DNA of 64,000 nucleotides, from contig CAZMND010000002.1 in the NCBI GenBank assembly GCA_964567585.1, forward strand, positions 7,592-71,591, in the 5' to 3' direction. The position numbers and the translations under genes were made by a program. How positions within the stretch are numbered: the first letter of the stretch is position 1; every line of letters begins with the position of its first letter. The notes beneath the pieces were generated by a model. It had not been told where the DNA came from. It was given only the letters and a program-made list of their open reading frames with translations, and did no database searches. The DNA comes from an uncultured Lachnospiraceae bacterium. Its GTDB lineage: Bacteria; Bacillota; Clostridia; Lachnospirales; Lachnospiraceae. Shown here in pieces: positions 3,073-3,318 of this stretch.

Positions 3073-3318
3073 ATGGAATCAGTTTTATCAGCAACAATGT
3101 CAGCAATCGGCTGGATTATCGGATTAGCATTTTTGGGAACAGGCATCGGACTTGGTATTCTTGGTTCGAAGGTTGCGGAGGCTGTAGGCCGAAACCCGGA
3201 AACAAAAAATGAAGTAATTCATTCAGTTATGGTAGTTGCAATTGTTTTAACTTTATTATTGTTATTATTATTTGCATTTGTATTGGTATTGTTATTCTTT
3301 AATCCATTAACTGCATAA
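3073..3318 (+). CDS. F-type ATPase c-subunit-like hairpin proteolipid (81 aa) lacking the mid-membrane ion-binding carboxylate
   Basis: RBS AGGAG. Helix 1 has the Gly-rich packing motif [10 protein letters not shown]. The polar loop GRNPET matches the canonical ARQPE. Helix 2 ([29 protein letters not shown]) has no Asp or Glu. Confidence 0.7.

Follow-up and report, generated by a model that had tools for sequence, protein, structure and literature searches.

A 64,000-nucleotide stretch of DNA from an uncultured Lachnospiraceae bacterium (GenBank assembly GCA_964567585.1, contig CAZMND010000002.1, positions 7,592 to 71,591; the whole stretch is referred to here as the window) encodes an 81-amino-acid relative of the c subunit of F-type ATP synthases that has lost its ion-binding site. 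The corresponding gene is embedded in a run of 11 genes coding, in this order, for an upstream giant surface protein, the surface protein p527 (527 amino acids), the c-like protein, a predicted b-delta fusion, alpha-, gamma-, beta- and epsilon-like subunits, the polytopic membrane protein m177, the surface protein p249 (249 amino acids), and a second giant surface protein of 3476 amino acids (Table 1). The homology of the 81-residue protein to c subunits, the loss of its ion site, the absence of a recognisable subunit a, the delta-like domain of the stalk protein, the intact motifs of the F1-like head, the synteny with surface proteins and the purifying selection acting on the c-like gene are established. 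On balance, we judge it somewhat probable that the module represents an ATPase of F1Fo descent without ion coupling; its ring would serve as a mechanical rotor or bearing, and its output would be directed to the co-encoded surface proteins.

Profile and pairwise comparisons identify the c-like protein as a genuine homologue of the ATP-synt_C superfamily. It scored 35.2 bits (E = 1.4e-8) against the Pfam model ATP-synt_C (PF00137), whose gathering cut-off is 24, with residues 11-72 aligned to profile positions 2-57 of 60. Among the sequences of the PDB, the top phmmer matches were the c1 and c2 subunits of Acetobacterium woodii (4BEM; E = 3.9e-13 and 5.7e-9, respectively), followed by dozens of F-type c subunits. 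The reading frame is preceded by a GGAG ribosome-binding site 9 nucleotides 5' of its ATG codon. Transmembrane (TM) prediction yielded two hydrophobic segments, and hence a two-helix hairpin, in which helix 1 carries a Gly motif (G13, G17, G22, G24, G26, G28), the loop reads E36-A-V-G-R-N-P-E-T-K45, helix 2 is wholly apolar with T60 at the position of the carboxylate, and an N77-P78 pair near the C-terminus is invariant. Both hallmarks of the superfamily are present: the profile score, and a hairpin whose first helix is rich in Gly and whose polar loop contains R-(Q/N)-P. An earlier note on this DNA, made from the sequence alone, had described the protein as a c-subunit-like hairpin that carries a Gly-rich motif in helix 1 and has a GRNPET loop; this description holds, and the possibility that the protein is unrelated to ATP-synt_C is not the case.

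As a working c subunit, the protein qualifies by none of the attributes of the AtpE equivalogs: it lacks the Asp or Glu residue in the membrane, it has no partner subunit a with its Arg, and it stays below all NCBIfam equivalog cut-offs (best NF005363, 41.7 versus 71; TIGR01260, 27.3 versus 43.95). Relatives of the protein in public databases (P0003, P0004, P0061, P0099) bear the names "F0F1 ATP synthase subunit C" or "F-type H+-transporting ATPase subunit c". For the c-like protein this label is probably over-specific, because the ion site is missing.

In the phmmer alignment with c2 of 4BEM, and likewise in a MAFFT alignment with the c subunits of E. coli, Bacillus PS3 and I. tartaricus, the column of the ion-binding Asp or Glu falls on T60. 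A single pairwise alignment, that with Chloroflexus, contained a one-residue gap and placed the carboxylate column on L62, a likewise non-acidic position. The Na+ ligands Q32, E65, S66, T67 and Y70 of I. tartaricus correspond in the MAFFT alignment to L27, T60, L61, L62 and L65. The protein possesses only four acidic residues (E2, E36, E43 and E47), all of them located in the loop or at the helix ends, and E36 aligns with E37 of E. coli close to the loop. In E. coli, a carboxylate moved to helix 1 (A24) can work; the equivalent residue here is T23, and this position is never acidic among 84 orthologues taken from genomic loci. At position 60, these orthologues carry Thr (42), Ala (23), Ser (14) or Val (5), and not one of the 84 has an Asp or Glu between positions 48 and 81. 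A carboxylate that was hidden by misalignment or had shifted to helix 1 could be ruled out, since acidic residues are missing family-wide from positions 3-35 and 48-81.

The same picture emerged from the databases. In the 120 closest homologues, which are 75-97% identical, stem from Lachnospiraceae and include proteins of Kineothrix alysoides and Hominiventricola filiformis, the only acidic residues after the RNP motif are the two next to the loop, and helix 2 is apolar. An exhaustive HMMER search covering 1.84 billion cluster representatives split cleanly: at the site column, the residue is V, S, T, M, A, F, I or G in proteins with a "GRNPETKxDV" loop, while the canonical c subunits lower in the same list all have E or D. 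As judged from these alignments, the loss of the carboxylate is a trait of the whole family and not a one-off mutation. The claim of the earlier note that a Thr takes the place of the ion-binding Glu was thus correct by the 4BEM c2 and MAFFT alignments; its further statement that neither helix has an acidic residue in mid-membrane held under every alignment, and related proteins (the 84 orthologues and the 120 close homologues) share this lack.

Two further groups of c-like sequences were seen in these searches. P0221, a match from the representative library, stands for a separate c-like lineage with a GRNPNARG loop and a Val at the carboxylate column. Long proteins with fused hairpins, for example P0136, P0144 (1139 amino acids, 14 matched stretches) and P0157 (631 amino acids, 8 stretches), occurred among the distant matches; in those inspected (e.g., P0137, P0139, P0142) the carboxylate is present in some hairpins and absent from others, and we set them aside as unrelated to the cluster.

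The module contains no recognisable subunit a. A scan with the Pfam and NCBIfam models found no ATP-synt_A match in the cluster, and the genes, all on the forward strand, abut or overlap, so that there is no room for another gene such as that for subunit a. The one polytopic protein of the cluster, m177 (its mechanically called reading frame begins at 7809, and an identical database protein of 176 amino acids, P0271, is known), was considered as a divergent subunit a and ruled out by comparisons of sequence, conserved Arg and fold. It has no Pfam or NCBIfam match; it is poorly conserved, and no conserved Arg in a TM segment was found across 62 sequences; and its AlphaFold2 (AF2) model, with a predicted local distance difference test score (pLDDT) of 82.6, had no Foldseek match with E < 1 in the PDB, though the PDB holds many subunit a chains. 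The carboxylate of the ring and the subunit that provides its partner Arg and the half-channels are hence both missing, as a loss of ion coupling predicts. Ion transport by the c-like protein is therefore unlikely on this evidence, since the Na+ and H+ ligand positions are replaced and the operon has no subunit a, and the view of the earlier note that ions are improbably carried is supported; a lack of reactivity with DCCD is predicted as well.

One might still suppose that the complex is an ion pump or synthase, either with an unconventional ion site or with the c-like protein as a spacer mixed with a carboxylate-bearing c subunit encoded elsewhere, in the style of c1/c2/c3 of A. woodii. The best PDB match, to a hybrid rotor with one hairpin devoid of a carboxylate, would fit this idea, as would the ATP synthase names given by public pipelines. 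However, no position of the site has a polar ligand residue, none of the 84 orthologues has an acidic residue in the membrane, the equivalog cut-offs are missed widely, and the cluster is without a subunit a. Moreover, each cluster has a single c gene encoding one hairpin, with no carboxylate-bearing c beside it as would be expected for a hybrid-rotor spacer. We regard continued ion pumping as very improbable.

The c-like gene is under strong purifying selection. Its ratio of nonsynonymous to synonymous substitution rates (dN/dS) is 0.02-0.12 in comparisons with relatives for which dS is not saturated, and comparison with the orthologue of the closest genome, at locus L004 (10001..10246), to which the protein is 99% identical at a synonymous divergence of ~0.6, gave a dN/dS of 0.018, which reflects a very tight constraint; the synonymous divergence also shows that the window does not come from that genome. 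G13, G17, G22, G28, E36, G39, R40, N41, P42, E43, K45, N77 and P78 are invariant in all 84 orthologues. Across distant lineages, the c-like proteins retain 48-91% identity, a value comparable to or above that of the alpha- and beta-like subunits, whereas stalk, surface and other cluster proteins fall to 20-35%. In F-ATPases, the loop of the c subunit is the region that contacts gamma and epsilon. Since both the Gly motif, on which ring packing depends, and this loop are conserved, the protein would still form a ring beneath the foot of the rotor.

The F1-like head has kept its catalytic motifs. In the beta-like protein, the GERSREG motif with the catalytic Glu was found in 72 of 72 orthologues, as was Walker B; the Walker A sequence GGAGVGKT was the first pattern match in 68 of them, the other four having an earlier sequence that matched first. 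The Arg-finger motif SVSRLG of the alpha-like protein is present in 75 of 75 orthologues. With these motifs intact, the head is expected to be an active ATPase. The beta-like protein scores slightly below the cut-off of TIGR01039 (atpD; 448.1 versus 462.85), and its best relatives in the PDB are genuine F1 beta subunits (~380 bits), with the G1 beta subunit of Mycoplasma mobile reaching 320 bits. The alpha-like protein possesses an N-terminal extension of canonical length ahead of the barrel domain, is ~60-70 amino acids shorter at its C-terminus than genuine alpha, and remains under the NCBIfam alpha cut-offs (425.6 versus 554). The epsilon-like protein is no larger than the N-terminal domain and lacks the C-terminal helical domain (orthologues comprise 80-110 amino acids); its NCBIfam matches (E = 0.04-0.1) align residues 6-81 with profile positions 3-79 of 130.

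The 269-amino-acid protein encoded between the c-like and alpha-like subunits is predicted to act as a peripheral stalk in which b and delta are fused and anchored in the membrane, based on fold matches to delta/OSCP and on weak OSCP matches. Its AF2 model (pLDDT 79), computed from an alignment of 30 homologues, consists of a helix at residues 2-81 that begins in the membrane as a single N-terminal TM segment, a disordered linker (81-104) and a delta/OSCP-like domain of helical plus beta structure (104-261). When this model was compared with the PDB by Foldseek, nearly only delta/OSCP chains of F-type ATP synthases were retrieved, including the mycobacterial b-delta protein (probability up to 0.99, E ~3e-3). 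Weak Pfam OSCP matches occur in seven of 29 family members (best E = 2e-4), and a search of the PDB sequences with the family profile found nothing significant, so that the delta domain is revealed by fold comparison only.

In at least 11 loci from two lineages (L022, L024, L054, L057, L060-L063, L070, L071 and L073), the gene that follows the one for epsilon encodes m177 and p249 as one polypeptide of ~400 amino acids (hmmsearch E down to 1e-28), and a second p249-like protein of 460-550 amino acids comes next. This fusion indicates that m177 and p249 work together. It also suggests a path for transmembrane signalling that does not involve the ring, and thereby bears on the idea that the ring does not rotate, is a static anchor that tethers the F1-like head, and that force reaches the surface proteins without full rotation, for example by a reciprocating push-pull through b-delta, m177 and p249. 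The absence of subunit a, or of any other recognisable partner of the ring, would be compatible with such an arrangement, and the mechanism of force output is likewise unresolved for the G1-ATPase of M. mobile (PMC11864180). Yet the parts of a rotor and a stator, namely gamma, epsilon, the delta-like stalk and the conserved c loop, are all kept, and anchoring alone would not explain why the c-like protein is conserved to the same degree as the catalytic subunits. A stator stalk is needed only when rotor and stator move relative to each other. We consider the static anchor unlikely, though it is the alternative to which we give the most weight.

The upstream giant, cut by the start of the window, is kept 5' of the cluster in close relatives; its full-length orthologue in L004 comprises 2089 amino acids with an N-terminal TM helix, collagen-like Gly-X-Y and repeated beta-rich domains, and it matches the Pfam Collagen and NCBIfam Scl-like models. 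p527 lies directly 5' of the c-like gene in nearly all of 83 loci, including the rearranged loci L065/L066, and contains a conserved (Gly-Gly-X)n stretch of ~65 residues (about 250-313) followed by C-terminal beta-rich domains. An orthologue of the 3476-amino-acid giant follows p249 in nearly all loci; its many repeats of the VGG(L/F)VG type suggest a beta-helix. Neither this giant nor p527 or p249 has a match in Pfam, NCBIfam or the PDB sequences. The Gly runs of p527 (Gly-Gly-X, ~250-313) and of the L004 giant (Gly-X-Y, ~264-327) would permit collagen-like trimers to form stalks immediately beyond the membrane. We also observed weak mutual matches between the N-terminal TM helices and membrane-proximal domains of the four surface proteins (1472..3055, 8435..9184, 9181..10170 and, in L004, 2120..2930): in a four-sequence database, BLASTP matched p527 to the upstream giant at E = 5e-5 and p249 to the giant at 8e-4, and a hidden Markov model of p249 matched the N-termini of p527 proteins at E ~1e-4. 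An anchor module common to the surface proteins is possible, albeit unproven.

That the cluster always adjoins very large surface proteins also raises the question of whether it might be an export or assembly machine in the manner of FliI-FliH-FliJ, which would translocate or fold the giants with the ring as a membrane platform or pore. FliH resembles b plus delta, and FliJ resembles gamma; moreover, FliI/YscN models also yield scores for the alpha- and beta-like proteins. These scores are much weaker, however, and alpha and beta carry clear F1 signatures, gamma and epsilon of the F type are present, no homologue of an export gate is present, and the signal-anchor helices at the N-termini of the surface proteins are of an ordinary kind that suits insertion by Sec/YidC. 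In addition, the lumens of c-rings are plugged with lipid in the known structures, which counts against a pore. An export function is, in our estimation, improbable.

A locus scan over one genome per species (185,579 species) revealed 344 loci that encode a relative. The best 80 of these 344 loci belong to Lachnospiraceae, Oscillospiraceae, Eubacteriales Family XIII, Erysipelotrichaceae and RF39-like Bacilli, the RF39-like hosts being labelled "Mycoplasma sp. CAG:472", "Mollicutes" or "Tenericutes". Among cultured species, the cluster is present in no fewer than two, namely Kineothrix alysoides (KNHs209) and Hominiventricola filiformis (CLA-AA-H276). Over ~80 loci, the order p527-c-bdelta-alpha-gamma-beta-epsilon-m177-p249-giant is nearly universal. 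In L065/L066, the order is beta, epsilon, m177-like, a giant of 2220 amino acids, p527, c (10001..10246 in each), p249 and giant, so that the c gene is set apart from the ATPase genes and stays between p527 and p249/giant. In RF39-like loci (L007, L009, L012, L013, L015, L016, L018-L020, L039, L059), the gamma-like gene is positioned 3' of the p249-like gene rather than between alpha and beta; just ahead of it lies an extra open reading frame of 104-120 amino acids that belongs to no known family. In three metagenome-assembled genomes, those of L024/L054/L063, L038/L079 and L058/L081, the whole module occurs two or three times; the copies are complete but have diverged, and every copy includes surface proteins of its own.

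Given the loss of subunit a and of the carboxylate, the shortened alpha and epsilon proteins and the scores below equivalog cut-offs, one could view the cluster as a functionless, decaying remnant of a duplicated atp operon. However, the reading frames are intact, the gene order is conserved at the 344 loci of the one-genome-per-species collection, dN/dS is low, the catalytic motifs are kept, and there are genomes with two to three full copies. We rejected decay into pseudogenes on the grounds of the conserved loci, dN/dS and catalytic motifs, and hold the remnant hypothesis to be hardly credible.

Of the three roles that had been proposed for a ring that carries no ions, a passive rotor, an anchor or a pore, the context favours a mechanical rotor or bearing, because the module has its own F1-like head with intact motifs, a b-delta stalk and giant surface proteins. 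In the interpretation that we favour, the 81-amino-acid protein would descend from an F-type c subunit, would still be ring-forming and would dock on the gamma/epsilon foot of the rotor. The machine would be composed of alpha3beta3-gamma-epsilon, the b-delta stalk with its membrane anchor, the ring of c-like proteins and a small, novel membrane protein, and it would hydrolyse ATP without moving H+ or Na+. Gamma and epsilon would turn the lipid-embedded ring against a stator made of the b-delta stalk, m177 and p249, and the output of work would go to the TM-anchored surface proteins, namely p527, p249 and both giants. A parallel would be offered by the mycoplasma F1-like X0 ATPases, which are thought to power gliding legs or MIB-MIP antibody cleavage. 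The formation of the ring, its rotation and its mechanical coupling to the surface proteins are what we infer. Some points weigh against this mechanical interpretation. A freely spinning ring would waste ATP, so that a coupling partner must be postulated; p527 and p249 show no notable conservation in their TM helices; and the alpha- and beta-like proteins score about equally on the genuine and the mycoplasma NCBIfam models, in all cases under the cut-offs.

A more specific version of the mechanical interpretation, which we advance tentatively and believe to have somewhat less than an even chance of being correct, is that the module constitutes an undescribed rotary machine of gut Firmicutes. 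An F1-spun, carboxylate-free c-ring would work against the b-delta/m177/p249 stator and would exert torque or a winch-like pull on the giants. Accessory proteins are known to sit inside the c-rings of V-ATPases, and single-pass proteins such as p527 might similarly sit in or on the ring; the TM helices at the two ends of the 3476-amino-acid giant could link it to rotor and stator. The module would then be a free-living relative, and possibly an evolutionary precursor, of the gliding and antibody-cleavage motors of mycoplasmas. If true, this would be the first rotary ATPase with a purely mechanical ring.

Table 1. Features of the 11-gene module in the window, with their positions (window numbering) and the basis of each assignment.
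Feature	Length (amino acids)	Position	Strand	Basis or remark
Upstream giant surface protein	482 (C-terminal part)	9..1457	+	cut by window start; orthologue L004 2120..8389
p527, single-pass surface protein		1472..3055	+	TM at residues 8-38
c-like proteolipid	81	3073..3318	+	PF00137 and PDB sequence matches
b-delta fusion, predicted peripheral stalk	269	3343..4152	+	AF2 model, Foldseek and weak OSCP matches
alpha-like subunit	441	4155..5480	+	PF00006, 241.7 bits
gamma-like subunit	260	5477..6259	+	PF00231, 84.8 bits (cut-off 39.9); under NCBIfam equivalog cut-offs
beta-like catalytic subunit	455	6268..7635	+	PF00006, 217 bits; ATP-synt_VA_C
epsilon-like subunit	99	7619..7918	+	position after beta and weak NCBIfam epsilon matches
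m177, polytopic membrane protein, 5-6 helices	176	7908..8438	+	start set by homology
p249, single-pass surface protein, beta-rich ectodomain		8435..9184	+	TM at residues 22-50
Giant surface protein	3476	9181..19611	+	TM at both ends, residues 20-45 and 3445-3471

Elsewhere, the window consists of ordinary chromosomal DNA (mutS/mutL, miaA, mreBC, minCD, rodA, yqfD, phoH, ybeY), and no genuine atp operon lies within its 64,000 nucleotides. Directly 3' of the giant, positions 19690..21936 encode a membrane protein of 748 amino acids with a Sulfatase/LtaS-like domain and a weak match to a "choice-of-anchor Z" repeat. Three reading frames around ybeY (25985..27244, 27742..29370 and 29436..30065; 419, 542 and 209 amino acids) have no Pfam match at E <= 1e-3. 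A scan of positions 1..20000 found promoter-like sites not above chance and 16 terminator-like sites versus 8.9 ± 2.9 expected, none of which bounds the cluster on the forward strand.

The novelty lies in a ring gene that lacks the carboxylate altogether and serves its own ATPase; single carboxylate-free hairpins are already known. We found no report of the module, of an F1-like cluster outside the mollicutes or of a carboxylate-free c-ring in the literature, a search outside which most subscription journals lay, so that absence is unproven; nor do the curated Pfam and NCBIfam families include a fully siteless ring gene serving its own ATPase without a subunit a. A conserved siteless c-ring protein with its own F1 and stalk separates the mechanical role of the ring from ion carriage. 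Because public pipelines name the genes "F0F1 ATP synthase subunit C" or "H+-transporting ATPase", an ATP synthase may be counted in metabolic reconstructions of gut Lachnospiraceae where the complex is probably something else. The linked giant surface proteins suggest an energised device for adhesion, motility or host interaction in common gut commensals.

When the module is set beside known systems, it shares with the genuine F1Fo-ATP synthase (atpBEFHAGDC) homologous c, alpha, gamma, beta and epsilon subunits, the delta domain, the Gly motif and R-N/Q-P loop of c, and the catalytic residues. It differs from this enzyme in the lack of subunit a and of the carboxylate and ligands of c, in the fusion of b and delta, in the C-terminal shortening of alpha and epsilon, in the scores of all subunits under the NCBIfam equivalog cut-offs, and in the four surface proteins encoded in the operon.

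Carboxylate-free hairpins occur in c1 of A. woodii and in the proteolipids of V-type enzymes, where they form a minority beside ion-binding ones and work with a subunit a. The A. woodii c1 subunit (4BEM), the closest solved sequence, shows that a carboxylate-free hairpin can pack into a rotating ring, and an "ANPF/FNPL" C-terminal motif is common to both proteins; in the module, however, the sole c gene of the cluster is siteless and there is no subunit a. N-ATPases (atpDCQRBEFAG) represent a second, divergent F-type operon beside the housekeeping enzyme in some bacteria, and they keep subunit a, a c subunit with a full (Na+) site, and AtpQ/AtpR. The alt_F1F0 models do give substantial scores on the module proteins, yet the cut-offs are missed widely (F0_C, 15.6 versus 130.85; alpha, 348.2 versus 750.5; beta, 406.6 versus 752), and genes for a, Q or R are not found here. 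With the mycobacterial b-delta protein (AtpH) and the flagellar FliH, the predicted stalk has in common that a stalk helix and a delta-like domain reside in one polypeptide. The mycobacterial b-delta protein belongs to a synthase driven by protons, in which it works together with subunit a and another b subunit, whereas the b-delta protein of the module has no second stalk protein beside it and possesses one TM helix, at its N-terminus.

In their logic, the mycoplasma F1-like X0 ATPases come closest to the module. They resemble it in that an extra F1-derived set of alpha, beta, gamma and epsilon stands beside non-Fo membrane proteins and large TM-anchored surface proteins, and in that ATP hydrolysis is thought not to drive the transport of ions but to perform mechanical work at the surface of the cell (PMC3369863, PMC12994834, PMC11864180). 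The Type 3 enzyme (the MSC_0618/0619 family) is required for MIB-MIP antibody cleavage (PMC12994834), and Type 2 (the G1-ATPase, MMOB1660/1670) is the gliding motor of M. mobile (PMC11864180). Their clusters comprise seven genes, including those for a protein with 12 TM helices and for a small cytoplasmic protein, and the F1-like X0 ATPases have no recognisable c subunit, no peripheral stalk and an alpha without the N-terminal helix (PMC12994834, PMC11864180). As in these systems, an F1-like ATPase is linked to large TM-anchored surface proteins in ~80 of our loci. In contrast to them, the module has retained a c subunit that can still be recognised, a b-delta protein with a TM anchor and the N-terminal extension of alpha; it has another gene order, other surface proteins, and a protein of 5-6 helices instead of the one with 12, and it is found in walled, spore-forming Clostridia. 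The presence of recognisable c and b-delta parts fits the fusion origin that has been proposed for the mycoplasma proteins (PMC7052211). On the mycoplasma models, the window proteins reached 391.5 versus 570 (MSC_0618_beta) and 315.3 versus 520 (MSC_0619_alpha), and on the gliding models 373.4 versus 600 (glide_MMOB1660) and 373.2 versus 850 (glide_MMOB1670); the RF39-like locus L012 gave mycoplasma-model scores similar to those of the window. Judged by gene content and profile scores, the module is a distinct variant rather than a member of the mycoplasma F1-like X0 ATPases, because c, b-delta and the alpha extension are kept, the gene order and the surface proteins differ, and the scores fail the cut-offs.

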